A DNA stretch of 64,000 bases, taken from the NCBI GenBank assembly GCA_963677595.1, contig OY782041.1, positions 2,368,001 through 2,432,000 on the forward strand, in the 5' to 3' direction. Position 1 is the stretch's first letter, and every line of letters begins with the position of its first letter. Positions 4,234 to 18,821 of the stretch are shown here, one piece after another. The position numbers and the translations under genes were made by a program. Source of the DNA: Spirochaetia bacterium (GTDB lineage: Bacteria > Spirochaetota > Spirochaetia > CAKZLE01). The notes under the pieces are model-generated. The model was not told the origin of the DNA and did no database searches. It was given only the letters and a program-made list of their open reading frames with translations.

Positions 4234-5211
4234 TTACTGCTTTGATTTATTGAAAATTTGAACAACGATTTGGTGTGATATATGCCACATCATTACTGGA
4301 GGTATGGCATTCCCAAGAGCCCTGTATTGTGAGAACTCTGATCCCACAAGTTTGAAGTTTTCTGGAAAAGATTGAATTCTGGAAACTTCTCGAGGCGTGA
4401 ATCTTCTGAATCTTCCTGATATTTTTAAAACGGGATCTGTGCTATTTAAAGAGACCTTTGCAAGGTGAGCACCTACAGTGTTGCAGGGCTGGGAAATGTC
4501 TTGGGCTCGACCTTTGTTCATCATTTTATTCGATTTCTGAAGCCCTAGAACAGCCCTCTCACTAAAATAATATTTTTCAGGAACTTCATTTTCATTAATA
4601 ATTACTTCATTTAATGGGATGGGTGAAATACTATTAGATAATGGCTTGAAATTAAAGTTTAAGTTTAAATCATCCCTTATTCCTATTATGAATACTCTCT
4701 CCCTTTTTTGAGGCACACCGAAATCTACAGAATTTAAAAGTTTCCAAGTAACATTATACCCGGCTTCTTCAAAATTTTTTATAATGAGTGGGAATGCTTT
4801 CTTTTTATTAGCTGACAATATACCTTTCACATTTTCAGCAATAAAGACTTTGGGGCGCTTCTCTTTGAGTATTCTCACCATCTCGAAAAATAATTTGCCC
4901 TTATCATCCTTATACCCTAGTCGGGGAGGGTTCTGGGCTACAATTGAAAAGGATTGGCAGGGGAATCCTCCCGTTAAAATGTCATGATCAGGGATTTCGG
5001 ATGCTTCGACATCTCTAATATCTTTTTGCTGACACTTTATTTGAAAGTTCTCATTAAAAATCTGACAGGCCGATTCTTCTATGTCATTCGCATACACGAT
5101 TTCAGTATTTAGCCGTGGGTATTTTGTATTAAGAAAAGTGAAACCACCTTCGATGCCTATGTCTGTTCCACCGCATCCGCTAAACAATGAGGCTACACGT
5201 ATTAGTTCCAT
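4234..5211 (-). CDS. DNA (cytosine-5)-methyltransferase (M2 of an RM operon)
   Basis: FSGCGG, GFPCQ, ENVKG, QKRERV, motif IX RRFTPREVSRIQSFP, motif X LGNAIPP. Confidence 0.95.
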   Translation of the reverse strand: MELIRVASLFSGCGGTDIGIEGGFTFLNTKYPRLNTEIVYANDIEESACQIFNENFQIKCQQKDIRDVEASEIPDHDILTGGFPCQSFSIVAQNPPRLGYKDDKGKLFFEMVRILKEKRPKVFIAENVKGILSANKKKAFPLIIKNFEEAGYNVTWKLLNSVDFGVPQKRERVFIIGIRDDLNLNFNFKPLSNSISPIPLNEVIINENEVPEKYYFSERAVLGLQKSNKMMNKGRAQDISQPCNTVGAHLAKVSLNSTDPVLKISGRFRRFTPREVSRIQSFPENFKLVGSEFSQYRALGNAIPPVMMWHISHQIVVQIFNKSKQ

Positions 5212-6614
5212 GGTAGTAATTCCTGATATTCTCCGCTTGTTTCCGGATTAAAAGTGATTTCCATTCCCATTTGAGTGTTGAGTAACATATCAATTTTATC
5301 TTCTTTGTATAACCTGTCAGGATCCTGTAGAACATATAATTTTTTTGATTCTTTACTGATATATAGTCGATAGATAAAATATCTATCTGACAAAGTTTTT
5401 GCTGTATTCCACTCATTTGGTGTTAAATGGAATCTGTGAAAAGAAATGTTTTTACTGCTTATTGTAGTTTTTACTTCGATATACCTTTTTCGTGCATCAA
5501 GTTCAACCGATTGCAAATCATAACCAACTGCATATGAAGTGGGAATTAATTTAATAAGGTGTAGAAGGTCTTCTCTACCACCAATAGTAATTCTCTTACA
5601 TTCATGTCCGTATGCTAAGTTTTCACCTAAGTCTCCAATCTCCTTAGTGCGAACTTCTTGTGACTCGACTCTACTAAGAAGATCTTCATAGCTCTTCATC
5701 ATATTTTCATACTGTTCTTCACTGTCAGATATCAGGGCAAGAATATCTGTCATAAAGAAATCTTGGGATACCTTCTTATTAACAAATTCAAACCATGGAA
5801 CTTTTAATGATTTTATTTCTTCGAGATCTCCTGCATTATTTTCTATCTGGGTGTCATATCCTGAGAACCATGAAGGATTTGAAAGAAAGAAATCAATAGT
5901 TTTGCTCTCTAGAGAGTTGATGTAAAAATTACCATTATAAGTATTTAAAAGATTTGCGATTGACATATAGTCTAATATATCACCTGCATACCTGATGATA
6001 TCTCCAGTCCAATCCCATGAATAATTATGTTCCTTTGCATCTAATATTCTATCCACTGTTTCCGCATTAGACTCAAGGCCGGCAGTTACTCTTAAATCAT
6101 TGAAAATCAAATGTGTAGCTTCAGCCTTTGATAATCCAATATTTTTCCCCGTTGAAGCTTTAAGATCTGTTAAGATTTTTAATATGGTGTATGCAGGATG
6201 GAACTTGACACCTTTTTCCACAAACTTTTCAATTTCATGAGATTTTATATGTGCTCCCGGATATTGGAAGAAATATAGAAAAATTTTGAAGAACTGAACA
6301 AGATCCTGATTAGTTGCAAGATCTTGCGATCGTTGTGATGATCTGGTCAGATTATTGGGCTTATCCTCAATGTAAAAACCGAAAAGTGAAGATATTTCAG
6401 TTCTCCAGTTATTTATTGTTTTTTCGGATAAACCAATATTTCCCGGAAACCGTCTGATAGCCTCGTTTAGTTTTAATTTGAAATCGTCGCAAGATGCGGT
6501 GTCAATCCGTTTTATTTCCTCCGCGACAAAGATAAGGACGTTTTCAATATTATTTTTAAATCTGGGACGAACATGGTGGATACGGAAATAGTATTCAGCA
6601 GGAACATTATACAT
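5202..6614 (-). CDS. Putative restriction endonuclease with C-terminal DUF3883-like PD-(D/E)XK domain
   Basis: GDLGE...GYDLQS...RYIEVKTT...LTPNEW motifs; overlaps a C5 methylase gene on each side. Confidence 0.8.
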   Translation of the reverse strand: MYNVPAEYYFRIHHVRPRFKNNIENVLIFVAEEIKRIDTASCDDFKLKLNEAIRRFPGNIGLSEKTINNWRTEISSLFGFYIEDKPNNLTRSSQRSQDLATNQDLVQFFKIFLYFFQYPGAHIKSHEIEKFVEKGVKFHPAYTILKILTDLKASTGKNIGLSKAEATHLIFNDLRVTAGLESNAETVDRILDAKEHNYSWDWTGDIIRYAGDILDYMSIANLLNTYNGNFYINSLESKTIDFFLSNPSWFSGYDTQIENNAGDLEEIKSLKVPWFEFVNKKVSQDFFMTDILALISDSEEQYENMMKSYEDLLSRVESQEVRTKEIGDLGENLAYGHECKRITIGGREDLLHLIKLIPTSYAVGYDLQSVELDARKRYIEVKTTISSKNISFHRFHLTPNEWNTAKTLSDRYFIYRLYISKESKKLYVLQDPDRLYKEDKIDMLLNTQMGMEITFNPETSGEYQELLPWN

Positions 6615-7653
6615 TTAGCTCTCCCAATATACTCATTAATTCTTTTGCTATTACCCCAGCAAGGATCGGAGGAACAGCATTCCCTACTTGTGTTTCTTGC
6701 TCGGATTTGTTTCCAAGGAAGACAAACGAATCTGGAAAAGACTGAATCCGTGCTGCTTCCCTTACTGTAGGTACTCTGTTGAAAGCGTAATGAAAATGGT
6801 GCCTATGTCCAGTATCAATTGTGAAGCTTGGGAATTTGCTATTCAGCCTTGTCCATGCAATATTAACTTTCCTCGAATTTTTAAACTCCTCTGGAAGGTT
6901 TTTATAATTGCCACCATCAGGTACCAAATTTATTATCATTTTTGTTTTGTCTGTATGTTTGGTTGTTATATGATTATATATCCCATTTGACCCCTGTCTC
7001 ATTTTTTCTTGGTAGTTTGATTTTGGTTTTTCAGGATATCCTTCTTCTGGTTTGATATCAAATTCAGGTAAATCTGAAATAGCTTCTTCTGCACTAATAT
7101 GGTCAGTTAAATATTTATCAAGACGGTTAAAGTCGAATTTATGTGAGGATTTGAATCCGATAAGGATAAATCTTTTCCTATGTTGGGGCACACCATAATC
7201 TGAGGCTTTAAGAATTTTCCAATTTAGATGGTAGCCAATATTCTCGAAGTCAGTGAGAATAGAATTTAAAATTATGCCTTCACCCATAGATGCTATATTG
7301 GGCACATTCTCCATCATAAATACTGCTGGTTGTAGTACTTCTACAAATTTCAAAAACTGTTTGTATAATTTATTACGATGATCATCAACAATACGTTTCC
7401 CTGCAATTGAAAAACCTTGACAAGGGGGGCCGCCGATTATGACATCTACCTCCCGTCCTTTCATAATATCCAAGGGATCTATTTGTGCTAAATCAGCATT
7501 AATAGTAGTGGTTTCCTGATGGTTAAGTCTTAATGTATCTAATGCAATTTGACAATTGTCAATCGCATAATTTATCCTAAATCCAGCATTTTGGAATCCA
7601 AGAGACAATCCTCCACAACCTGAGAATAAGTCGAGTACCCTATATTTTTTCAC
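6607..7653 (-). CDS. DNA (cytosine-5)-methyltransferase (M1 of an RM operon)
   Basis: DLFSGCGG, GGPPCQ, ENVP, QHRKR, TVREAARIQSFPD, QVGNAVPP. Confidence 0.95.
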   Translation of the reverse strand: MKKYRVLDLFSGCGGLSLGFQNAGFRINYAIDNCQIALDTLRLNHQETTTINADLAQIDPLDIMKGREVDVIIGGPPCQGFSIAGKRIVDDHRNKLYKQFLKFVEVLQPAVFMMENVPNIASMGEGIILNSILTDFENIGYHLNWKILKASDYGVPQHRKRFILIGFKSSHKFDFNRLDKYLTDHISAEEAISDLPEFDIKPEEGYPEKPKSNYQEKMRQGSNGIYNHITTKHTDKTKMIINLVPDGGNYKNLPEEFKNSRKVNIAWTRLNSKFPSFTIDTGHRHHFHYAFNRVPTVREAARIQSFPDSFVFLGNKSEQETQVGNAVPPILAGVIAKELMSILGELNV

Positions 7654-8080
7654 CCTTAATTTCCTTTATCAGTTTCTCTAGATAATGAAGATCTTTAATT
7701 TCACATTCCCAAACAACTAGAACTTTAAACCCTAGTTTTTCTAGTTCTAAGTAGTTTTCCTCATCTCTGGTAATATTCCTGTTTATTTTATCTCTCCAAT
7801 AAGTCGTATTAGTCTTAGGGAGATGATTCTTCTTGCAATACTGATGCCCATGCCAAAAACATCCATTTACAAATACAACTGTTTTATAAAGGGATAAAAC
7901 AATATCTGGTTTCCCTGGAAGTATCCCATCATTGATAATTTTTTTTGAAACGTTGCCGTGCAATCGATATCTAAACCCTCTAGCAAATAGAAATTTTCGG
8001 ACCACCAATTCTGGTTTAGTATTTTTTGATCTGATTAGACTCATGTTCCAGCTGCGTTTTTCATTTGACAAATTATCCAC
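7640..8080 (-). CDS. vsr: Very short patch repair endonuclease
   Basis: RSWNMSLIRSKNTKPE, PGKPDIV, FVNGCFWHGH, VVWECE. Confidence 0.93.
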   Translation of the reverse strand: MDNLSNEKRSWNMSLIRSKNTKPELVVRKFLFARGFRYRLHGNVSKKIINDGILPGKPDIVLSLYKTVVFVNGCFWHGHQYCKKNHLPKTNTTYWRDKINRNITRDEENYLELEKLGFKVLVVWECEIKDLHYLEKLIKEIKGEKI

Positions 8081-8181: not shown

Positions 8182-8898
8182 TCAATATGGATGACAATGG
8201 AACCAGGCCACAACCTTCCCTTTGATCACTACGTTCTCATCGTCGATTGATACTGTTTTCACGTCTGGGTATCTTGGGTTCTCTGAGGATACCTTGATGG
8301 TTCTGTCAAAAGAGTCGAATTCTACCCGTTTGACCAAGACATCGCCGTTTACTGAGAGGACATAGATTCCTTCCTTGGCAATATGGCCGAGAGCAAAGAC
8401 CACGATATCTCCATCAAATATCCTGACTCCGGTCATGGAGTCTCCACGGACCTCAACCGCTTTTAAATCTGAAATATTATAATTTGATACCAATCTTCTC
8501 AGGACCGGAATATGATTACCGGAGAACTGTTCATCTATCATCATGGCCCCGTATCCGGCAGAAGCCTTCTGATCCAGGACAGGGAGCATGAGAAAATCAT
8601 CATCCGTGCTGAGAGGGATCTCCTGATTCCTAGGGGTCATATAGATAGCATGTTTCCTGACCGCTTGAGAGACCGCTTCCTGATCTTGGAGGAGATCTTC
8701 GCCGTCGCCGGTAACCAGGTACTCGACTGATACTCCGAGAGACTTAGCAATTTTCACAGCCAGGTCGGCTTTCGGCAGTCGGTCGTGGGTAATCCAGCTG
8801 GACATCGTGCCGCTTGAAACAGCTATCTCATTACATAACCAGTTCTGGTTTTTCTCGGGGTCTAAATTTTTTTTCACTCTTTTCCAGAAATCTAACAT
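8182..8898 (-). CDS. CI-like repressor (XRE HTH + S24 autopeptidase)
   Basis: N-terminal HTH (KIAKSLGVSVEYLVTG), ASAG cleavage site, VRGDSM serine and LVKR lysine. Confidence 0.93.
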   Translation of the reverse strand: MLDFWKRVKKNLDPEKNQNWLCNEIAVSSGTMSSWITHDRLPKADLAVKIAKSLGVSVEYLVTGDGEDLLQDQEAVSQAVRKHAIYMTPRNQEIPLSTDDDFLMLPVLDQKASAGYGAMMIDEQFSGNHIPVLRRLVSNYNISDLKAVEVRGDSMTGVRIFDGDIVVFALGHIAKEGIYVLSVNGDVLVKRVEFDSFDRTIKVSSENPRYPDVKTVSIDDENVVIKGKVVAWFHCHPY

Positions 8899-8905
8899 AC
8901 GTAAG

Positions 8906-8934
8906 AGTATATCGAAATAGTCATATGTTGACTA
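8906..8934 (-). promoter_or_regulatory. PRM-like promoter for cI
   Basis: Minus strand TAGTCA-17 bp-TATACT, 7 nt before the cI ATG. Confidence 0.6.
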
Positions 8935-8992
8935 GCGTATATGAGTGTCATTATTGATAAATCTGAGCAGAAAAAACATACATAAAAACCTC

Positions 8993-9021
8993 TTGAACAT
9001 GTAGGTATACGGATGTATAGT
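8993..9021 (+). promoter_or_regulatory. PR-like early lytic promoter
   Basis: TTGAAC-17 bp-TATAGT, divergent from cI. Confidence 0.6.
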
Positions 9022-9028
9022 GACACAC

Positions 9029-9148
9029 ATGAAGACAATGAATGGAAGAAACAAACGCAAGATTGACTGGGTATTCCCGGATCTCCATTGGAAAAAAGTT
9101 GTTTATGCAGACCGATTTCGAATCCTACATATGGTAAGAAATTTCTGA
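9029..9148 (+). CDS. 39-aa basic ORF in the cro position (function unknown)
   Basis: MKTMNGRNKRKIDWVFPDLHWKKVVYADRFRILHMVRNF*, starting 7 nt after the -10 box; no clear HTH. Confidence 0.3.
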   Translation: MKTMNGRNKRKIDWVFPDLHWKKVVYADRFRILHMVRNF

Positions 9149-9842
9149 TCCCCTACAGACATTGTATCGTTCTCATTGATTGAAACCAACCTGGGGTACA
9201 ACCCCTGACAATACAGCTCTGCCCGGAGAGTCTTACGGGATTCCTGATTCTTATGTGGTACAAGGATCAAGGAAAATGAAGATTACCAATACTAAGGAGA
9301 AGAAGTGGCAATACGATTACAGACGACCAGAGACATTGCTGTCCAGGGAGTGAAGCTCCTGGTCTACGGTGCTGCCGGTGCCGGAAAGACCTCACTGGTG
9401 AGAACTCTGCCAAAACCGATTGTGCTATCAGCGGAAGGAGGACTGTTGTCCCTTGCAGATGAAGATATTCCGTTTATCGAGATCTCATCTGTATCTGATC
9501 TGCAGGATGCTTACAGCTGGCTGACCGGTGAAGAGGGGAGTGAATACCAGAGTATCTGTCTGGATTCCATCTCAGAGATAGCTGAGGTAGTGCTCAACTA
9601 TGAGAAGAAGCATGCCAAAGATCCCCGGCAGGCCTACGGAGCAATGCAGGAGCAGATCACCGATCTCATCCGTGCCTTCCGTGATATCCAGGGAAAGCAT
9701 GTCTATTTATTTGTCTGTAGATGTCAAGAGGTATAAACAAGAAAGTTTTGGCAATTCAAATAGACACAATTCTCCGAGACCTTAAAAATAAGGACTTGCG
9801 TGGGGAGGTGGTTAGTGATAGGCTAAAACCGTTAGATTGGCT

Positions 9843-11012
9843 TTAGCTGGTTATTGAGCTCTTATCGGAATTAATCTTGCAGGATCGGGTTCCGATGAGA
9901 GCTTCAAGTTTATAGTATTGCAGTTTCTTCAACAGATACTGTTCCCCGTCAGGCATCCGGTAGATATCACCGTTCTTCAGCAGAGCGAATCCGATAGAGA
10001 GCATCTTATTAGCAATGGCAACTGATGCTTTCTGACCAAGCTTCCGTCGGCTTTCAAGACGCTGCCAGTACCGAGTAAGAGAACAATCTCTCCTAAAGCT
10101 CTTGATCCCCCAAGCTCCCTGCATGATGTGCCTCCTGATCGGCATACACCCGTGACGAGAGACCCCAAGATGCTTATCGACCGTCCCGGATTGATCCTTC
10201 TTCGGGATGAGACCGATATAGTTCCTCAGTTGGTTAGCAGAAGAGAATCGGTCCCCATTACCGAGGAAGGCAATGAGCGTTACAGCCGTGATGTCTCCGA
10301 TACCAGGAATCGAGAGCCAGGAAAGAGCTTCTCGTGGGTGAGCGAGAATGATCTCCTTGAGCTTCTCATGAATACGTTCCATCTGCGACTCCAATGATTC
10401 AAGCTCTTCGAGCAGGAGCCCTGCACTGAATAGAGCTATCTCCTCGGTGAGCAGGGTCTCCACCCAGTCCCGTCGCTTGCGAGGATCCTTCAGATCCGAT
10501 TTCTTCAGGTCAGGGAACCCCATTCCCGTGAATACCGCATGAAGCTTGTTGATGACCTTCGTACGATACTGTGAATAGGCGATGTGAAGCTTGACTACTG
10601 AGCGCTCAGCAGATTCCTGTTCAGTCGGGATAGGAACCAGTACCCAGTTCTCCGGGTGGGCATCCCGTGCATACTTAGCCAATTTTGCAGCATCTTGCCG
10701 ATCTGACTTGCAGATCGACTCGAAGATGATATGCAGTTTCATGGGGTTGAGTACATACACGTCTGCTTCGGTGTGCTTCAGCAGATACCGTGCGAGGTTG
10801 AAGGAAGAGGTCCCTCCCTCCATGAAGATCGCATCTCCTGCTTTGAACCGTTCAGCGAGTCGCTGACGTCCTTGAGCATTCATCTTCTCGTTGAAGAAGT
10901 GATTCTTCATGAACCCTTCTTCTGCTAGTAGCATACACCCAACCAGAGTCTTCTTGGAAAGATCCAAGCCGATGATCCTGGTTGCCGTCAATCGTAAAGG
11001 TCTGTCTATCAT
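9843..11012 (-). CDS. IS110-family DEDD recombinase/transposase
   Basis: IIGLDLSK (D), FMEG (E), KSDRQDA (D,D), SIPGIG, YIGLIP..QSG (catalytic Ser), AIANK. Confidence 0.96.
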   Translation of the reverse strand: MIDRPLRLTATRIIGLDLSKKTLVGCMLLAEEGFMKNHFFNEKMNAQGRQRLAERFKAGDAIFMEGGTSSFNLARYLLKHTEADVYVLNPMKLHIIFESICKSDRQDAAKLAKYARDAHPENWVLVPIPTEQESAERSVVKLHIAYSQYRTKVINKLHAVFTGMGFPDLKKSDLKDPRKRRDWVETLLTEEIALFSAGLLLEELESLESQMERIHEKLKEIILAHPREALSWLSIPGIGDITAVTLIAFLGNGDRFSSANQLRNYIGLIPKKDQSGTVDKHLGVSRHGCMPIRRHIMQGAWGIKSFRRDCSLTRYWQRLESRRKLGQKASVAIANKMLSIGFALLKNGDIYRMPDGEQYLLKKLQYYKLEALIGTRSCKINSDKSSITS

Positions 11013-11074
11013 GGCAGCCTCCTCAAAATAAAATTAACGGATAGTTGGGAAGCTTTATGACAGGAAGTGCGTAG

Positions 11075-11235
11075 ATGCCCTTCATTTTTATTATTGAGAT
11101 CATTCCCGGGGAGAATTCCCCGGGAAGTCTCCAAGTAGTCTTCGATGACCGGTCAGTGTATCTTTCTCATTGAGGTATGTCTGAAAGTCCAGCATCCATC
11201 ACAATAGATCATTACACGATCACCGGTTCCCATTC
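11075..11235 (-). ncRNA. Predicted bridge/seek RNA in the 5' non-coding end of the IS110 (ends approximate)
   Basis: Two stem/internal-loop/hairpin units whose loop strands match the insertion target and the circle junction (see findings). Confidence 0.75.
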
Positions 11236-11556
11236 TCCGTCAAGAATAGGATAGCATCTATGACTTCTCAACTACAGTCATACTACTTTCTCAGCAAAGC
11301 TCGAGAAGACCCAGGACGAAATGGGAAGGATTCTCTATTCACCCTCGATGCCGGGGAACAAGACCGGACAGCAGCTTCCTTACTTTTTCGATGAGGTTCT
11401 CGCTTTGAGAGTAGAGAAGGATTCTGACGGAGTGACCCAGCGGGCACTCATGTGTGATGCCGATGGGATCTGGACGGCGAAGGACCGCTCCGGGAAGTTA
11501 GCACCCTGGGAGAGTCCTGACCTGGGAATGATCATCTCCAAGATCGGAGGTGCAGC

Positions 11557-11946
11557 ATGACCGATATCGAGAAAGCCTGCCAGGCCTGGGATGAGGCGAA
11601 GCTGGCAGAGAAAGCTGCAGTCGAGCAGCGGCGAGAGATTGAGGATTGGCTCAGTGGACAGATCAAAGTCCCTGAAAGCTTTGAAGGAACGAAATTAGTT
11701 CCTGCCGGTCCTTTCAAGATCAAGGTCACCGGACGGATGACTAGGAAAGTTGATGAGGTGGAGCTGCAGCGAATTGCTGCTATTCATGGAACAACCGATC
11801 AGCTGCCGAAGCTTTTCCGCTGGAAGGCCGAGGTGAGTAAGAGTGTATGGGATAAAACCGATCCCGAGGTGACAACCCCGCTGCTTGCAGCGATCACCAC
11901 GAAACCCGGGAGATTGAGTTTTACCATCGTCCGGGAAGAAGCATAA
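11557..11946 (+). CDS. Phage hypothetical protein (recombination module)
   Basis: 129 aa, ATGA overlap with the upstream gene, phage-like codon usage. Confidence 0.75.
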   Translation: MTDIEKACQAWDEAKLAEKAAVEQRREIEDWLSGQIKVPESFEGTKLVPAGPFKIKVTGRMTRKVDEVELQRIAAIHGTTDQLPKLFRWKAEVSKSVWDKTDPEVTTPLLAAITTKPGRLSFTIVREEA

Positions 11947-11963
11947 GGAGGAAAAGAGAGTTC

Positions 11964-12449
11964 ATGGCGTATTTAGGACAAGTATATAACGAGGCAGATC
12001 TTCCCCAGGAAGACTCCTTTGAGGCGATTCCTGCAGGCTGGTATGATGCCGAAATCAAAGAGGCTGATATCAAGGAAGCGAAGAGCGGAGGGAAATACAT
12101 CAACCTTCAGTTCAGTATCACAGGACCAACTCATGAGGGGAGGGTCGTCTTTGACCTGATCAACTTCATCAATAGGAATGCTCAAACCATGGAGATCGCT
12201 CACAAGCAGCTTGGTTCCTTGATCAGGGCAATCGGGCTGGTGAGGGTAGAGGATACTAATGAACTGGTTGGGGGAGCCTGCAGCATCAAGGTGGGCTTTT
12301 CCAAGACGAGTGAGGAGTATCCTGATCCGAGGAATGAGGTGAAGGGCTACAAGAAGAAAGAAGGAGCAGTCCCTTCGTTTCAGGCTCCGAAGCCTGCAGC
12401 AGCACCTGCTGCAGATGATAAGAGCACTCCTCCCTGGGCAAGACGATAA
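11964..12449 (+). CDS. DUF669-like phage protein (putative ssDNA-binding)
   Basis: FEAIPAGWY start, RNEVKGY, and an Ala/Pro-rich tail ending PPWARR; strong RBS; follows the Sak4-like ATPase. Confidence 0.8.
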   Translation: MAYLGQVYNEADLPQEDSFEAIPAGWYDAEIKEADIKEAKSGGKYINLQFSITGPTHEGRVVFDLINFINRNAQTMEIAHKQLGSLIRAIGLVRVEDTNELVGGACSIKVGFSKTSEEYPDPRNEVKGYKKKEGAVPSFQAPKPAAAPAADDKSTPPWARR

Positions 12450-12527
12450 AAGACGACCAAATCTGCCACATCCTCAGGAAGTGATTCCTGAGGAGTGTCT
12501 ATCGAACTGCGAATCAAGGAGGAGTGC

Positions 12528-13553
12528 ATGGCTATTATACCAGAGCCTGAAATCAATACAATATCCCTCATCAACCGATATCATGAAGAATTATCGGAGA
12601 AACCCCGTTATCATCTGGGCTTCTCTCTTCTCGGGCATCCCTGTGACCGATGGCTCTGGCTGTCTTTCCGCTGGGCGGTGAGGGAACAATTTCCCGGCAG
12701 GATCAAGCGCCTGTTCAGAAGAGGGCAGGATGAAGAGCTCACTGCAGCTTCAGATCTCCGGGCGATCGGGGTGGACCTGAGAGAAACCGGACGATACCAG
12801 CGGACGATCTATGCCGGGTCCCATGTTCAGGGATCTCCTGATGGAATAATCTATCATGGACTTCCTGAAGCATCAAAGACGATGCATGTGTGGGAATGTA
12901 AAACTCACTCCAAGAAGAGCTTTGATGAACTCGAGAAAAAGGGAGTAGAAAAGGCAAAGTGGCAGCACTTTGTCCAGATGCAGTGCTCCATGACCAAGGC
13001 GAATATTACCCGAGCTCTCTATTATGCAGTCTGCAAGGATGATGATCGTCTCTATACTGATCGGGTCTATATCGACCGGGAGATCGGAGAGAAATACATC
13101 GAACGGGGTAAAAGGATCGCCTTGAGTGAACGTATCCCCGAGCCGATGTCAGCTGATCCTTCCTGGTATCAGTGTAAGCTCTGTGCTGCTCATTCCTTCT
13201 GTTTTGAAGCTCAATCAACTCAGGAAATCAACTGCAGGACCTGTGCCCATTCCACCCCGGAAGTAAACAGCACCTGGACCTGTGCCAGATGGAAGGCTGA
13301 GATTCCGAAGGAAGCCCAGACAGACGGTTGCAGAGCTCATGTGTTTCATCCTGATCTTGTTCCCTGGAAACTGCAGGAAGAGAAATGCAGCGAGAGGGAG
13401 GCTTGCTGGATTATCGGAGACCAGGAAGTTATTAACGGAGAAGCCGGGTATTCAAGCAGGGAGATATTATCTGGAAGCCCCTTCGGCGATGCAGTCATTG
13501 ATACCATACGGGAACTTTTTTCAGGTGAGTTAATTACCACCACTACAACATAG
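12528..13553 (+). CDS. Phage PD-(D/E)XK exonuclease with Fe-S-like cysteines (Cas4/RecB-like)
   Basis: GHPCDR, GSPDG...WECKT, QMQ, CKLC..C; GGAGG RBS before 12528. Confidence 0.82.
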   Translation: MAIIPEPEINTISLINRYHEELSEKPRYHLGFSLLGHPCDRWLWLSFRWAVREQFPGRIKRLFRRGQDEELTAASDLRAIGVDLRETGRYQRTIYAGSHVQGSPDGIIYHGLPEASKTMHVWECKTHSKKSFDELEKKGVEKAKWQHFVQMQCSMTKANITRALYYAVCKDDDRLYTDRVYIDREIGEKYIERGKRIALSERIPEPMSADPSWYQCKLCAAHSFCFEAQSTQEINCRTCAHSTPEVNSTWTCARWKAEIPKEAQTDGCRAHVFHPDLVPWKLQEEKCSEREACWIIGDQEVINGEAGYSSREILSGSPFGDAVIDTIRELFSGELITTTTT

Positions 13554-13562
13554 GAGAAAAAA

Positions 13563-14948
13563 TTGAATGAGTTACATTTATTTGCAGGGGCAGGGGGAGG
13601 AATCCTCGGTGGCCACTTGCTCGGTCATAGAACAGTGTGTGCAGTTGAAATTGAATCCTTCCCAAAGGAGGTGCTGTTGCAGAGGCAGCGTGATGGAGTC
13701 CTTCCTTGGTTCCCTATCTGGGATGATATCAGGACGTTTGACGGAACCCCATGGAGAGACTGCGTCGACATTGTTTGCGGAGGATTCCCCTGCCAGGATA
13801 TTAGTGCTGCAGGGAAAGGCAAAGGGATTTCAGGTGAAAGGTCGGGGCTCTGGTCGGAAATGGCGAGGGTGGTCAGCGAAGTTAGACCAAAGTATGTCTT
13901 TGTGGAAAATTCGCCCTTGCTTACCGGACGAGGACTTGACCGGGTCCTCATGGATCTGGCCGGCCTGGGGTATGATGCAAGATGGGGAGTGTTGGGTGCA
14001 GATGATGCCGGTGCTCCTCACCGAAGGAAAAGAATCTGGATCTTCGCGTATGATCCCGACCCCAACATGTTCAGATACCAGAACAGCCAACATGAAAAGC
14101 TCTCAAACTTCAGAGAACACCATGCACAGTGTAACATTAGCGAGATTGGTGGAGAAAGAGCCTTGGAAGATATGGCCTACTCCAACGAGTACCGATGCAA
14201 CTGCCGGGGCAGTATTGAATCAGAACACGAAGCTGATCAGGTTGAAATCGGGGCGATTAAGGAAGGTTTCGAACAACGGGGTTGCAGGAAGCATTGGTCT
14301 GGCGAGAACGGTTGCACTATGGCCGACTCCGGACGCAAGCATGGGGACGAGAGGATTGGAGAAGGACTGGAAGCCGGTACGTCCAAGTGGGCATCATGCT
14401 CAGTACACGATCAATCAGGCAGTGAACGATGTAGAAACCTTTTGGCCGACTCCTACCGCAAGCGAGGATGTAGCAGGAACCCCGGAGGGGAAGATGCAAT
14501 GGATGCTGACCCAAGCAGCGAAGAGTGGATGCAAGACTCGGAAGGAATATCTTGGTGGGAAATCGACCCCGCGGAATTACCCGACCCCGACAACTTCAGA
14601 TCGTTTCAATGTAGAACCTCAGCACGACAAGGGGAGAAAGCTTCTGAGGATGGAAGCTCATCCAGAGGGAACCGAAAATCTGACTGCTGCTCAAGCAAAC
14701 CAGATGAATGGCCAGTTGAACCCGGATTGGGTGGAATGGCTGATGGAATGGCCGATTGGGTGGACCTCGCTGGAACCGCTTTCGGGGGAAAAATACCAAG
14801 GGTGGGTACAGGCATCGATAAACGTGTTAAAAGGCTTAAGGCGATAGGAAACGGTCAGGTCCCTGTGGTAGCAGCAATGGCATTTATTATCCTCTCTCAA
14901 GGAATCATTCCTGATGAAGAGTCTTTATCGATGGAGAACGTATGCTGA
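13563..14948 (+). CDS. Phage C5 DNA methyltransferase, catalytic chain (motifs I-VIII and X; no motif IX)
   Basis: LFAGAGG, GGFPCQD, FVENS, HRRKRIW, then about 250 aa of unconserved-looking sequence, then RLKAIGNGQVP. Confidence 0.9.
   Translation: MNELHLFAGAGGGILGGHLLGHRTVCAVEIESFPKEVLLQRQRDGVLPWFPIWDDIRTFDGTPWRDCVDIVCGGFPCQDISAAGKGKGISGERSGLWSEMARVVSEVRPKYVFVENSPLLTGRGLDRVLMDLAGLGYDARWGVLGADDAGAPHRRKRIWIFAYDPDPNMFRYQNSQHEKLSNFREHHAQCNISEIGGERALEDMAYSNEYRCNCRGSIESEHEADQVEIGAIKEGFEQRGCRKHWSGENGCTMADSGRKHGDERIGEGLEAGTSKWASCSVHDQSGSERCRNLLADSYRKRGCSRNPGGEDAMDADPSSEEWMQDSEGISWWEIDPAELPDPDNFRSFQCRTSARQGEKASEDGSSSRGNRKSDCCSSKPDEWPVEPGLGGMADGMADWVDLAGTAFGGKIPRVGTGIDKRVKRLKAIGNGQVPVVAAMAFIILSQGIIPDEESLSMENVC
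13567..14847 (+). CDS. Overprinted +1-frame partner chain of the methylase (five PTP modules + motif-IX-like segment); start uncertain
   Basis: 426 codons with no stop; repeats MIPTPT, IWPTPT, LWPTPD, FWPTPT, NYPTPT; GQLNPDWVEWLMEWPIGWT. Confidence 0.72.
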   Translation: MSYIYLQGQGEESSVATCSVIEQCVQLKLNPSQRRCCCRGSVMESFLGSLSGMISGRLTEPHGETASTLFAEDSPARILVLQGKAKGFQVKGRGSGRKWRGWSAKLDQSMSLWKIRPCLPDEDLTGSSWIWPAWGMMQDGECWVQMMPVLLTEGKESGSSRMIPTPTCSDTRTANMKSSQTSENTMHSVTLARLVEKEPWKIWPTPTSTDATAGAVLNQNTKLIRLKSGRLRKVSNNGVAGSIGLARTVALWPTPDASMGTRGLEKDWKPVRPSGHHAQYTINQAVNDVETFWPTPTASEDVAGTPEGKMQWMLTQAAKSGCKTRKEYLGGKSTPRNYPTPTTSDRFNVEPQHDKGRKLLRMEAHPEGTENLTAAQANQMNGQLNPDWVEWLMEWPIGWTSLEPLSGEKYQGWVQASINVLKGLRR

Positions 14949-16579
14949 GACCATATCAGGAGAAAGCGCTCAAGGACCTCTACAGCTGGTTCGAAACTCA
15001 TGAAGGACATCCGTGCCTGGTACTGCCTACCGGTGCCGGGAAGAGTCATATCATTGCCGAGCTCTGTAAGGATGCGATACAGAAATGGCCGGAAACCAGG
15101 ATACTCATGCTCACCCATGTGAAAGAGCTCATCGAGCAGAATGCCCAGAAGCTGAGGCTCCATTGGCCGAATGCACCCCTGGGGATCTACTCAGCAGGGA
15201 TCGGCAGGAGAGAACTCGGTGAACCGATCACCTTCGCCGGTATCCAGTCGATCAGGAACCATGAAGTCGGGCATATCGATCTCTGTATCATCGATGAATG
15301 TCATCTTGTGAGTCACAAGGCAGAAGGGACCTATCGGTCCTTCCTGCAGCGGCTCCAGGAGATAAATCCAGATATGAGGGTGATCGGGCTCACGGCAACT
15401 CCCTATCGTCTTGGGCATGGACTGATCACCGATGCTCCCGCCTTATTCGATGATCTCATCGAACCGGTCACCATTGAGGAGCTCCAGAGTCAGGGTTATC
15501 TTGCAGATCTCAGAAGTAAGATCACCAGGTCGAAGCTCTCAGCAGATGGAGTACACCGGCGAGGTGGTGAGTATATCGAGAAGGAGCTGCAGCAGGCAGT
15601 CGATGTCACAGCGAAGACGGAAGCGGTGATTGAGGAAGTGATCAGCCTGGCGGGTGTGAGAAAATCGTGGCTCTTTTTCTGTACCGGGGTGGAACATGCC
15701 CAGCACGTGAAGGAGATCCTAAACTCCCGGGCTATTGCAGCTGACTGCATTACTGGATCAACCGGGAAGAAGGAACGCCAGAGAATCATCGAGTCGTTCA
15801 AGGCAGGAGAAATCAGGGCTCTAACCAATGCCAACGTACTGACCACCGGCTTTGATTATCCCGATATCGATCTCATTGTGATGATGAGACCAACCTTATC
15901 ACCGGGACTCTATATCCAGATGGCGGGGAGAGGCCTGAGGCTGAAGAGCCATACCGATCACTGCCTGGTGCTTGATTTCGCCGGGGTAGTGGAAACTCAT
16001 GGCCCGATCACGAATGTGAGAATCCCGGGAAGAAAATCAGAAGATAGCGATGCTATTCCTCCCTCTAAGATCTGCCCCAAATGTGATGAGATCTTGGCTG
16101 CTCAGGCTATGGTCTGCAGGTACTGTGGTTATGAGTTCCCTGCAGCAGAGCATCATGACTGGCAGCTGCATGATGATGACATTATGGGGAAGGAAGAGAG
16201 CAGCATGCTGGTAACCAGCTGGCTGTGGTCTCCCCATATAAGCCGGAAAAGTGGGAAGGAAATGGTGAAGATCACCTATTTCGGAGCTCTCTCTGATATG
16301 CCGGTCGTTGAGTATCTGCTGATCTTCCATGACGGCTATGCCGGAAGAAAAGCTCTCGGGTCCCTGAAGTTCATAGCAGCAAGCTGCCAGGTGGAGATCG
16401 ATGAGAGCTGGAATATTGATGAGCTCTGTATGGTGTTCAGTCTGAAAAACCCTCCTGAGGCGATCTCCTACCGGAAGGACGGGACCTTCTACAGGGTAAC
16501 AGAGAGAGTCTGGGAGAAACGAGAAGAAGAGGGAATAGAGCCGGCAGACAGCTCATTCTATGCGAGGAGAATTGTATGA
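14942..16579 (+). CDS. SF2 DExH helicase (RadD/YejH-like) with zinc finger
   Basis: LPTGAGKS, DECH, TATP, QMAGRGLR, CPKC..CRYC. Confidence 0.92.
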   Translation: MLRPYQEKALKDLYSWFETHEGHPCLVLPTGAGKSHIIAELCKDAIQKWPETRILMLTHVKELIEQNAQKLRLHWPNAPLGIYSAGIGRRELGEPITFAGIQSIRNHEVGHIDLCIIDECHLVSHKAEGTYRSFLQRLQEINPDMRVIGLTATPYRLGHGLITDAPALFDDLIEPVTIEELQSQGYLADLRSKITRSKLSADGVHRRGGEYIEKELQQAVDVTAKTEAVIEEVISLAGVRKSWLFFCTGVEHAQHVKEILNSRAIAADCITGSTGKKERQRIIESFKAGEIRALTNANVLTTGFDYPDIDLIVMMRPTLSPGLYIQMAGRGLRLKSHTDHCLVLDFAGVVETHGPITNVRIPGRKSEDSDAIPPSKICPKCDEILAAQAMVCRYCGYEFPAAEHHDWQLHDDDIMGKEESSMLVTSWLWSPHISRKSGKEMVKITYFGALSDMPVVEYLLIFHDGYAGRKALGSLKFIAASCQVEIDESWNIDELCMVFSLKNPPEAISYRKDGTFYRVTERVWEKREEEGIEPADSSFYARRIV

Positions 16580-16764
16580 GACATCCAGAACCTGATTTTG
16601 TAACCGCCTGGCTGAGAGGAGAAGTCCCCAAATGCTGCCATACCTGTCTTCAGTATTCGGAAGGCGGGATTTGTAAGATCTTCAGCACAGAACCTCCTGA
16701 ACAGTTTGCCCGGACCATTAAGGCCTGCGATGACTGGGAATCTTTCGATGGAGTGCCATTTTGA
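16576..16764 (+). CDS. Small Cys-rich phage protein
   Basis: 62 aa, CCHTC...C...C; overlaps both neighbours. Confidence 0.65.
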   Translation: MRHPEPDFVTAWLRGEVPKCCHTCLQYSEGGICKIFSTEPPEQFARTIKACDDWESFDGVPF

Positions 16765-18821
16765 TAGGAGCAGCAACCCAAAGAGTGGGTAATATCGTTG
16801 AACTCCTGGGGCAGCCCTGGGAGTACAAAGAAGAGACCGTAATACCTCCAGAGATGCAATTATCTCAAGCAATCCAGGATGCAGGACTTCATGCACCCGG
16901 CGGGATCACTTTCAATGGTGAAATCCACCGGTTTTCAGCGGACGGGTCTCGATCAGATCTTTCCGGCTGGTATGTTGCCTTCTCTGACGGAATCCCTGCA
17001 GGAGCGTTCGGGACCTGGAAGGACGAGAAGAAACACCAGTGGCGGGCTGATATAGGCCGGGAACTCACTGCAGTGGAATCGATGAAGGTTGCAGAACGGT
17101 TGAGAATAGCAGCGGAGATCAGGGACAAACAACGGGAACAAAAGCATCAGGAAACTGCAGAAAGCTGCCAGCACCTCTGGGAAGCAGGAGAGCCAGCACC
17201 GGATGATCACCCATATCTGATAAGGAAACAGGTGAAATCACATGGGATCAAGCTCTCCAAGGATGGACGGCTCATGCTGCCTCTATTCACAGCAGACGGT
17301 GAGCTCTCGACCCTGCAGTACATCGCAGAGTCGGGAAAGAAGCTGTTTCACTCAGGAGGGAAGGCTGGAGGCTGTTTCTGGTGGCTGGGAAATCTTGAGA
17401 ATGGGAAACGGGTTTATATCGCAGAAGGCTATGCAACAGCTGCCAGTATCCACGAGGTTACCGGTGAGCCGGTTGTTATCGCCTACAATGCGAAGAACCT
17501 GATCCCGGTGACCTCTTTGATCAGGACCAAGCTCCCGACACGAGAGCTCATTATTGTTGCCGACAACGATGAATCTGGGACCGGGAAGAAATGTGCTGAA
17601 GAGGCTGCAGAGAAGTCAGGAGCTGAAGTGATCATGCCGCCGGAGACTGGGGATGCGAATGACTTTCTGCTTTCTGGGGGAGATCTCAAAGAGCTGCTAC
17701 AGCCTAAAGTCCCATCCTGGTTGGTGTATGCGGATGAATTCTCTCAGCATCCATCCCCACTGAAATGGCTGGTACGAAGGTGGCTGCAGGAAGATGCCAT
17801 GATCATGATTCATGGGCCTTCGGGATCGGGCAAGACCTTTGTGGTCCTCGACTGGTGTCTCCATATCGCTTCAGAGAAAACTCATTGGCTCGGGCAGAAA
17901 GTGCAGAGCGGCCATGTGGTGTATCTGGCTGGAGAAGGCCATTACGGACTTCGTAGCCGTATCGCTGCCTGGAAGCAGTATCATCGGATCGAGCACCTTG
18001 ATATGACGCTCTCAGTGGGGGCGGTGGATCTCAATACTGTAGAAGGCTTGAGCAAGACGGTAAGCAATATACATTCCCTGGAGATCCAGCCGAAGCTGAT
18101 CGTGGTAGATACCCTCCATCGGTTTTTTGCAGGGGATGAGAACAGTGCCCAGGATGCGAAATCGATGCTGGATGCCTGTGCCCATCTGATGGGGGAATTC
18201 TCCTGCTCAGTAGCACTGGTCCACCATACCGGGGTGAACTCGGAAGCACAGCACCGAGCCCGAGGATCTTCAGCCTGGAGAGCTGCCATGGATGTCGATA
18301 TCTCTATAGAGCCGGGAGGAGCGAACACTCCGATCACCATCTCCCAGAAGAAGGTGAAGGATGCAGAAATGACTGAAGAGATCCATGTGGAACTGGAAGA
18401 GGTGCAGCTCCCCTGGTTGGATGAGGATGGTATGCAGGTATCGAGTGCTGTGGTTACCGAAGGAATACCCCGAGCCCAGCAGCAGAGGGACAGCAAGCAG
18501 CAGGAGCGGGTCAACGATATGATCCAGGCCTGGTTGAATTCAGGTGCAGAGGATATTGATGGCTTGCCCTATATCACCAAGTCGGCTTGGAAGGATTATA
18601 TCAAGGGGATAAATCCAGAGATCAAGGAAGGGAACCTGAGCCAGAAATTCAAGGCTTCCGATCCAAGGTCGATGGTCAGTCGGTTGATGGGCGAAGGATT
18701 AATCCAGGAATACCAGGCCGGCTACCTGATTATCGAGGGAGAAACCTCTTCGATCATGATGCTGACAAGGCTCGGTAGTAGCGGTAGTTCTACGGTAACA
18801 CTACCAAAGACTACCCGGTAG
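16761..18821 (+). CDS. Primase-helicase (TOPRIM + RepA/AAA_25-type helicase)
   Basis: IAEGYATA, ADND, DAND; Walker A GPSGSGKT; IVVDT; VHH; RGSSA. Confidence 0.9.
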   Translation: MIGAATQRVGNIVELLGQPWEYKEETVIPPEMQLSQAIQDAGLHAPGGITFNGEIHRFSADGSRSDLSGWYVAFSDGIPAGAFGTWKDEKKHQWRADIGRELTAVESMKVAERLRIAAEIRDKQREQKHQETAESCQHLWEAGEPAPDDHPYLIRKQVKSHGIKLSKDGRLMLPLFTADGELSTLQYIAESGKKLFHSGGKAGGCFWWLGNLENGKRVYIAEGYATAASIHEVTGEPVVIAYNAKNLIPVTSLIRTKLPTRELIIVADNDESGTGKKCAEEAAEKSGAEVIMPPETGDANDFLLSGGDLKELLQPKVPSWLVYADEFSQHPSPLKWLVRRWLQEDAMIMIHGPSGSGKTFVVLDWCLHIASEKTHWLGQKVQSGHVVYLAGEGHYGLRSRIAAWKQYHRIEHLDMTLSVGAVDLNTVEGLSKTVSNIHSLEIQPKLIVVDTLHRFFAGDENSAQDAKSMLDACAHLMGEFSCSVALVHHTGVNSEAQHRARGSSAWRAAMDVDISIEPGGANTPITISQKKVKDAEMTEEIHVELEEVQLPWLDEDGMQVSSAVVTEGIPRAQQQRDSKQQERVNDMIQAWLNSGAEDIDGLPYITKSAWKDYIKGINPEIKEGNLSQKFKASDPRSMVSRLMGEGLIQEYQAGYLIIEGETSSIMMLTRLGSSGSSTVTLPKTTR

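Follow-up and report, generated by a model that had tools for sequence, protein, structure and literature searches.

The window, by which we mean the whole 64,000-nt stretch analysed here from a Spirochaetia bacterium (contig OY782041.1, positions 2,368,001 to 2,432,000), holds a prophage replication module at 8182-18821 with genes for a CI/S24 repressor, an AAA_24 ATPase, DUF7173 and DUF669 proteins, a C5 methylase, a helicase and a Toprim primase. The methylase ORF (13563-14948) is overlapped in another frame by a second ORF of 426 aa (13567-14847), and the region before the prophage repressor (4234-8080) carries what we take, from the translations, to be two C5 DNA methyltransferase-like genes, a restriction-endonuclease-like gene and a Vsr-like gene. 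The AAA_24 gene is interrupted by an IS110-family element that occupies 9708-11286, with its recombinase gene on the minus strand, between two TT cores at 9706-9707 and 11287-11288. On the plus strand, the 5′ half of this host gene spans 9305-9705 (Pfam AAA_24 positions 2-126 of 195, E 5.6e-18) and the 3′ half 11289-11560, the two being in frame when the empty site has three T. The frame is lost with one, two or four T; with no T it is also kept, but one codon is dropped. Empty sites were reconstructed throughout, that of the window copy being the exception in having the support of this frame test.

The recombinase gene (9843-11012, minus strand) encodes a DEDD/serine recombinase of 389 aa with the PF01548 and PF02371 domains, scoring 198 bits against NCBIfam NF033542 (cut-off 140). 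Residues D17, E65, D104, D107 and S275 align with the catalytic positions of IS621 and are invariant in the clade (36 sequences). A PF01548 DEDD domain, a PF02371 domain with its catalytic serine and a length within 300-460 aa are what the IS110 family in the broad sense comprises. The longer of the two non-coding ends lies upstream of the gene: the left end (LE, 11013-11286, minus strand) is 274 nt long, compared with 135 nt for the right end (RE, 9708-9842, minus strand), which is common to five copies and the plus strand of which opens with the right donor arm (RD).

LE carries a predicted bridge RNA running from about 11273 to about 11060, its start being placed from a -10 box. The first-pass annotation had proposed an RNA in minus-strand sense with the target loop before the donor loop, and the fold, the guide matches and the covariation described below uphold that proposal. 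Folded as the minus strand, 11040-11270 gave z = -4.67, none of 200 shuffles folding as well, and both target guides fell in one internal loop. The layout is IS621-like, namely a 5′ stem-loop, then the target loop, then the donor loop. The 5′ stem-loop (11229-11250, minus strand, as are all parts of the RNA) has a GACG loop that is also present in the Leptospira element ISLin1. The outer stem of the target-binding loop, which had been predicted from the letters, was located by fold and column pairing at 11213-11227 (5′ strand) and 11148-11160 (3′ strand); it encloses the left target guide (LTG, 11203-11211), an inner stem-loop (11170-11202), the right target guide (RTG, 11163-11169; core plus 5 nt) and a predicted handshake dinucleotide (11161-11162), placed as described for IS621 (PMC11208158) and in relatives often identical to the first bases of LE. 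In the donor-binding loop, the left donor guide (LDG, 11133-11141) and the right donor guide (RDG, 11087-11096) flank an inner hairpin at 11103-11126, the perfect hairpin noticed earlier. All four guide matches had been read correctly in position (AATAGA at 11203-11208, TTTCTCA at 11163-11169, AAGTAGT at 11133-11139 and TTTATT at 11087-11092), and two of them required lengthening. The first target guide has 9 nt and not 6, because sister copies with the same guides show it, and the first donor guide matches the start of the left end plus the core at 8/9 positions over 11133-11141. RDG has 6 contiguous matching bases, or up to 8 with a 2-nt bulge, and varies with the RE end in relatives.

We collected 4 + 7 + 80 loci, the relatives being 40-88% identical, among which 79 had an alignable upstream RNA (73 distinct rows). 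Stems were conserved with changes on both sides: 512/536 cells are paired in the 5′ hairpin, 403/438 in the target outer stem and 274/292 at the base of the donor stem, and a further pairing figure for the outer stems and 5′ hairpin is 200/219. The inner stems (285/477 in the target loop, where clade-wide column pairing is weak, and 258/509) and the second outer stem (226/344) are poorly aligned across the clade. Rfam gave no bridge-RNA match, the sole match being a snoRNA model inside the coding region (E 0.64). The element thus has the structured non-coding end with target and donor loops, and with guides that covary with their sites, by which the IS110 family in the broad sense is recognized; covariation was judged by permutation for the target guides and by eye for the donor guides.

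On the plus strand, the left target arm (LT, 7 nt, 9699-9705) lies downstream of the recombinase gene and is matched by the first target guide at 4/7 positions here and 5-6/7 in sister copies, while the right target arm (RT, 5 nt, 11289-11293) is matched 5/5 by RTG. The core at 9706-9707 marks the LT-RD junction, from junction comparison, and that at 11287-11288 the junction of the left donor arm (LD) with RT, from junction comparison and the frame test. TTT had been noted both at the empty target and at the circle junction, and both junctions do carry it. A TT/AA core had been defined in the first-pass annotation by the first guides ending in TT; the core is indeed TT, but the right guides and the junctions define it better, because RTG ends in AA in 78/79 aligned loci and the first target guide ends in TT in 62/79 only. 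Before the left end, 70/73 loci have AA, which is TT on the opposite strand, the three exceptions being one insertion (L020, L021, L026) with TA at the core position of its left junction. The recombinase matches of these three loci look frameshifted (1169-nt spans). Insertion is conservative at this 2-nt core. A 3-nt target duplication, or the other placement of the 2-nt core, was rejected, several left junctions having only AA before the end (L051, L088, L025, L028 and L011, for example). IS621 is reported to tolerate an engineered TT core (PMC11208158).

LD (7 nt, 11280-11286, minus strand) holds a -10 box, TAGTAT, at 11280-11285, and a -35 box, TTGACA, lies on the minus strand at 9722-9727 near the other end. 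In the IS110 family the circle junction rebuilds a sigma-70 promoter, and here circularisation would build a TTGACA-17-TAGTAT promoter from the two boxes; with the 2-nt core model, the spacer across the joined ends of the predicted circle is 17 nt in 55/55 loci that have both ends, although for subfamilies D and E we chose the left-end anchors with the data already in view, a choice that somewhat favours this count and the RTG result below. A linear promoter scan returned 2 sites where 1.8 are expected, the relevant promoter existing only across the junction. A search for sequencing runs that carry the element listed no RNA run, and contigs of four runs contained no RE-LE joint; contigs drop rare forms and are uninformative on circles. 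Natural change of LDG should be restrained by the presence of the -10 box within the left donor arm. Both ends also carry subterminal inverted repeats of 11-12 bp (9712-9723 in RE and 11269-11280 in LE, 10/12 identical). Taking the best of 20 placements, without a shuffle control, these repeats reach at least 9/11 identity in 29/31 distinct end pairs, and they change in step between subfamilies.

The genome holds five full copies of the element (96.5-100% identical), one left-end fragment and one distant element. The fragment (C1:253783-253963) has the 5′ hairpin and a whole target loop with different guides, ends inside the donor hairpin and comes without a recombinase; it could provide a target-only RNA acting in trans, or be a relic. 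The distant element (L011, C1:2614076-2618191) is a second member of the clade, 46% identical, with its own bridge RNA. Its right-end motif was not found in the 420 nt downstream, and it may accordingly be immobile. One full copy (L009, 1662853-1664446) and relatives such as L015, L076 and L082 are inserted in a T-run directly after GC-rich, terminator-like hairpins; the A-rich right guides may bias the clade towards such intergenic sites.

The earlier annotation had set covariation of guides with targets as a check on its proposal, and the other copies in the genome do fit their guides. In three further copies with the same guides, the right arms match at 13/15 bases (binomial p ~1e-5 at 0.3 background) and the left arms at 11/21 unshifted (p 0.03), or 17/21 with one copy shifted by one base. 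In the fifth copy (L010), both target guides and both flanks have changed together, the left being 4/7 identical with two wobble pairs in addition and the right 5/5. Further left flanks on loose contig ends of sequencing run X1 fit one or other guide, though X1 may be the source sample and is therefore not independent.

Covariation is also present across the relatives by permutation, for which 52 distinct downstream sites and 63 distinct upstream sites were available, the other loci missing an end on their contig or having no end motif. At 7 variable positions, LTG matches the reverse complement of the downstream flank at 4.52/7 on average over the 52 distinct sites, compared with 3.06 ± 0.14 when permuted (0/10,000), at 4.44 compared with 3.05 over 45 distinct guides, and at 4.94 compared with 3.71 ± 0.13 (0/10,000) when permuted within subfamilies; because related loci are not independent, such p-values overstate the case. 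Read against the upstream flank, that is, in the IS621 orientation, LTG showed no excess (1.25-1.97 vs 1.28-1.87, n = 64). RTG matches the upstream flank at 4.13/5, compared with 2.73 ± 0.09, at offset 0 only (63 sites). Guides so short and A/T-rich, many right guides being nearly pure A, might match AT-rich sequence by chance, the element being targeted by protein; against this, the permutations use variable positions only and come with within-subfamily and orientation controls, and guide and site have changed as pairs in L010, L051, L036, L034 and the ISLin1 copy L094, so that chance is a reading to which we give almost no weight.

The two target guides differ in how tightly they fit. Of 30 informative cases, 26 have the RTG marker base in register; in two it is displaced by one position, and in two it differs. 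LTG matches are loose: at least 6/7 with a unique best offset is reached in only 16 of the 52 sites, at offsets -1 (5), 0 (5), +1 (1) and +2 (5). All the -1 offsets fall in subfamilies B and F and four of the +2 offsets in subfamily D. A general slippage of the left guide, considered at one stage, was kept only in part, most cases being a lineage-specific register or a matter of anchor choice; shifts of left register under the same guide are confined to L009 relative to L005, L007 and L008, L013 relative to L014, and the ISLin1 copy L093. These figures fit a joint that would be set by the right (top-strand) guide, with the left guide pairing more loosely, through mismatches and offsets of 1-2 nt. 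Tolerance of target insertions has already been noted for IS621.

As for the donor guides, when subfamilies are compared by eye, the left one changes with its end sequence over 4-5 nt and the right one over 6-8 nt, and the first donor guide, which covaries over those 4-5 nt only, often mismatches the core. This bears on whether the target loop alone, as a short seekRNA, might be the working guide, the ends being recognized mainly by protein at the subterminal repeats and the donor-loop matches being secondary. Short target-only RNAs are reported to suffice for ISEc11 and ISEc21 (PMC11187229) and to dominate CazIS110-1 pull-downs (10.1101/2025.10.25.684509), and the IS1111-like repeats of the clade (the 29/31 end pairs, counted without a shuffle control) together with the short reach of LDG covariation would suit it. 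However, both donor guides are positioned as expected about a conserved stem, and from one subfamily to another they vary with the end sequences; CazIS110-1 is described as needing the full RNA for circles (10.1101/2025.10.25.684509). We consider a target-only guide unlikely; it is in any case a matter of degree, and compatible with a bridge RNA that reads both target and donor.

The first-pass annotation had also suggested that the guide order is flipped relative to IS621, and comparison with the IS621 sequences in the Durrant supplement bears it out. In IS621, according to that supplement, the first donor guide is the RE end in sense and RD is the start of LE; its left junction is LT-RD (PMC13626964). 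In the window element the first donor guide reads as the start of LE in reverse complement, the LT-RD junction lies downstream of the gene, and the first target guide reads the flank downstream of the recombinase, RTG reading the flank upstream of it, which is the IS1111-type order. IS1111 elements, which have their RNA downstream, are reported to show this order, and the IS110 element ISEc21 the opposite one (PMC11187229). The geometry of the RNA itself is that of IS621, with a 9-nt first guide, a second guide of core plus 5 nt, the handshake position and room for a 2-nt bulge in RDG, and we therefore read the DNA sites, not the loops, as inverted.

Order alone cannot separate inverted DNA sites from an RNA with swapped guide roles, in which the sites would face the IS621 way, the top-strand guide would come first and the chemistry would start on the other strand; indeed, for IS1111 elements Siddiquee et al. 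place the reversal in the RNA (PMC11187229). What makes swapped roles improbable here is that the first guide consists of a 7-nt arm plus core, and the second of core plus 5 nt with a handshake-like pair after it, just as LTG and RTG are built in IS621, and that RDG has room for a 2-nt bulge like U159/U160 of IS621. Reading the sites as inverted also gives ISLin1 a CT core and the clade a TT core, keeping the near-invariant second T.

Taken together, we consider it highly probable (roughly 90%) that this is an IS110-family element with covarying target and donor guides upstream of its gene, likely forming a bridge RNA that directs the recombinase to a TT core, with both sites opposite to those of IS621 relative to the gene. 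Its programmability and activity we infer from natural covariation. By analogy with IS621 and CazIS110-1, excision would join RE to LE and so create the TTGACA-17-TAGTAT promoter, from which the bridge RNA (~210 nt) and the recombinase would be transcribed. A recombinase tetramer would then bind both loops, the left guides pairing with the bottom strand and the right guides and handshake bases with the top strand, and D17/E65/D104/D107, together with S275, would cut the top strand immediately 3′ of TT, after which it would be exchanged, as proposed for IS621 (PMC11208158, PMC13626964). Two preprints report copy-out of mainly the top strand. With the sites inverted, the top strand is predicted to be the template strand of the recombinase gene, and a copy-out circle would be the non-coding strand.

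Set beside IS621 and ISCro4 (IS622), as described in PMC11208160, PMC11208158 and PMC13626964 and in PDB 8wt6-9 and 9t56, the element shares the DEDD and serine recombinase with aligned catalytic residues, the RNA upstream of the gene with its 5′ hairpin, target loop and donor loop, the 7+2+5 site geometry, a junction promoter (predicted here), the handshake position and a bulged RDG. It differs in that sequence similarity is weak (E ~1e-13), the protein has 389 aa rather than 326, both sites, target and donor, run the opposite way with respect to the gene, the core is TT rather than CT, the subterminal repeats are 11-12 bp rather than 2-3 bp long, and the 7-nt left donor arm contains the -10 box. 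An upstream RNA, a junction promoter and natural reprogramming are also described for ISEc21 (PMC11187229) and CazIS110-1 (10.1101/2025.10.25.684509); unlike the window element, ISEc21 has the bottom-strand match first (PMC11187229).

Among the 40 plasmid matches listed, the best bit score of a named element was that of ISLin1 (27-28% identity, 144-150 bits), which is sister to the window clade with supports of 97/95 and 99/98; it is filed under IS110 in the source data of Siddiquee et al. (PMC11187229). ISLin1 has a homologous upstream RNA with the GACG hairpin in 3/3 copies, the same flipped order, which is clear in two copies and fits the third with a 1-nt bulge, and a predicted TTGACA-17-TAGTAT junction promoter. 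Its copy L094 has a changed right guide with a changed flank. Unlike the window clade, its core is CT in guide sense (AG in gene sense) and its protein is shorter, at 357 aa. In two of the three copies seen, ISLin1 targets a 36-bp repeat, and in L092 (NZ_CP092665.1, 2152-4571) it is apparently in tandem, the 36-bp repeated unit being the target and four guides being readable in the upstream RNA.

Like the IS1111-group seekRNA elements ISEc11, ISKpn4, ISPa11 and ISPst6, the window element has the top-strand match before the bottom-strand match, and as in that group it has subterminal inverted repeats of 11-13 bp and a longer terminal extension on the left; in the IS1111 group, however, the RNA is downstream, the proteins have 330-350 aa and the extensions are 7+3, as described in PMC11187229, compared with an upstream RNA, 389 aa and a spacing of 6+2+4 here. 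The long non-coding region upstream of the gene is that of the IS110 group sensu Siddiquee and of IS621-type elements. The other two marks of the IS621 type, a bottom-strand match before the top-strand match in gene sense and subterminal repeats that are absent or of only 2-3 bp, are lacking. Of the IS1111 marks, the element has the 11-13 bp repeats and the guide order; it has neither the long non-coding region downstream of the gene nor the extensions of 7 (or 6) + 3 bp, the repeats being 12 bp apart at the junction (6+2+4) instead of 9-10. Nor is the recombinase that of the IS1111 clade, since its length is not 330-350 aa and it falls outside the IS5075/IS5708/ISShdy1 clade in both trees, which hold 11 reference rows only, lack IS621 and have an unresolved base. 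The group labels of IS5708 and ISShdy1 are our assumption, taken from their place in the Siddiquee matrix. We therefore place the window element in the IS110 family, broadly taken, while it lacks defining marks of the IS621-type subgroup and of the IS1111 subgroup alike. The upstream position of its RNA is combined with the guide order and repeats of IS1111, and its recombinase lies beyond the IS1111 reference clade.

A flip unique to the window element is excluded by ISLin1 and by other lineages that show it too. We surveyed 11 multi-copy elements from genomes of the phylum and 3 plasmid elements, the readings resting on matches of 5-8 nt without permutation tests. Five elements have a downstream RNA, and the only one read (G156, by eye) fits the IS1111 order. 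With an upstream RNA and the IS621 order we found G016, G211, ISBth13 and a Thermus element, which have CT or CA cores in gene sense and form one clade (96/99). With an upstream RNA and the flipped order we found elements in G174 and G146, where the core is AG in gene sense and the donor loop and right guide are clear, the left guide being weaker. G190 and G232 (two copies each, upstream RNA) gave no readable orientation. The G174 (L187-L192) and G146 (L199-L201) elements are inserted in ribosome-binding sites just before start codons, and a purine-rich sequence at their right end provides a new site. In ISHvo9 (L095, L109, L114, L117, L121), whose ends are approximate, the upstream donor loop looks flipped; at each of its ends this element has a long non-coding region, and its subterminal repeats are long as well. 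A single clade of flipped upstream-RNA elements was not supported, G174 and G146 sitting apart in a tree with an unresolved base.

In the literature, Siddiquee et al. mention that in a few elements the non-coding region is atypically placed, and the text seen gives no guide order for these (PMC11187229). We found no text on an upstream bridge RNA with IS1111-type order, or on a guide RNA of ISLin1, though figures, supplements and subscription papers may hold either. ISPpu9 is reported to recombine at AG (PMC12288879) and may be flipped as well. Durrant Extended Data Fig. 10c shows the related ISPpu10, so that the flip may already stand in a published figure.

Guidance by a bridge RNA is as such already known, 32,190 bridge RNAs under 86 models having been predicted in bulk, and the flip is shared with ISLin1 and other lineages. 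At a little under even odds, we tentatively propose a third, undescribed bridge-recombinase architecture, with RNA upstream, sites inverted and long subterminal repeats, spread over several deep lineages, namely the spirochaete clade, ISLin1, the lineage that targets ribosome-binding sites and probably ISHvo9. Under this proposal, the clade would be a natural TT-core recombinase whose right guide alone fixes the joint and which copies out the template strand of its own gene. If so, the position of the RNA and the order of its guides would be independent of each other, and not the linked marks of IS110 and of IS1111 that they are in print. The window element in itself contradicts the published use of guide order to tell IS110 from IS1111, a rule that rested on few upstream-RNA elements.

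In practical terms, the clade offers a system that has been mobile recently, to judge by five copies at 96.5-100% identity, and has been reprogrammed in nature, with a native TT core and fully readable guides, at about twilight-level similarity to IS621 and ISCro4. AT-rich targets could gain from such a core, because IS621 uses non-CT cores less well (PMC11208160). When such systems are mined, the sites must be read on the other strand, or else cargo would be inserted backwards and the core miscalled AA or AG. Finally, the clade offers a clean test of top-strand copy-out models, copy-out being predicted here for the other strand with respect to the gene.
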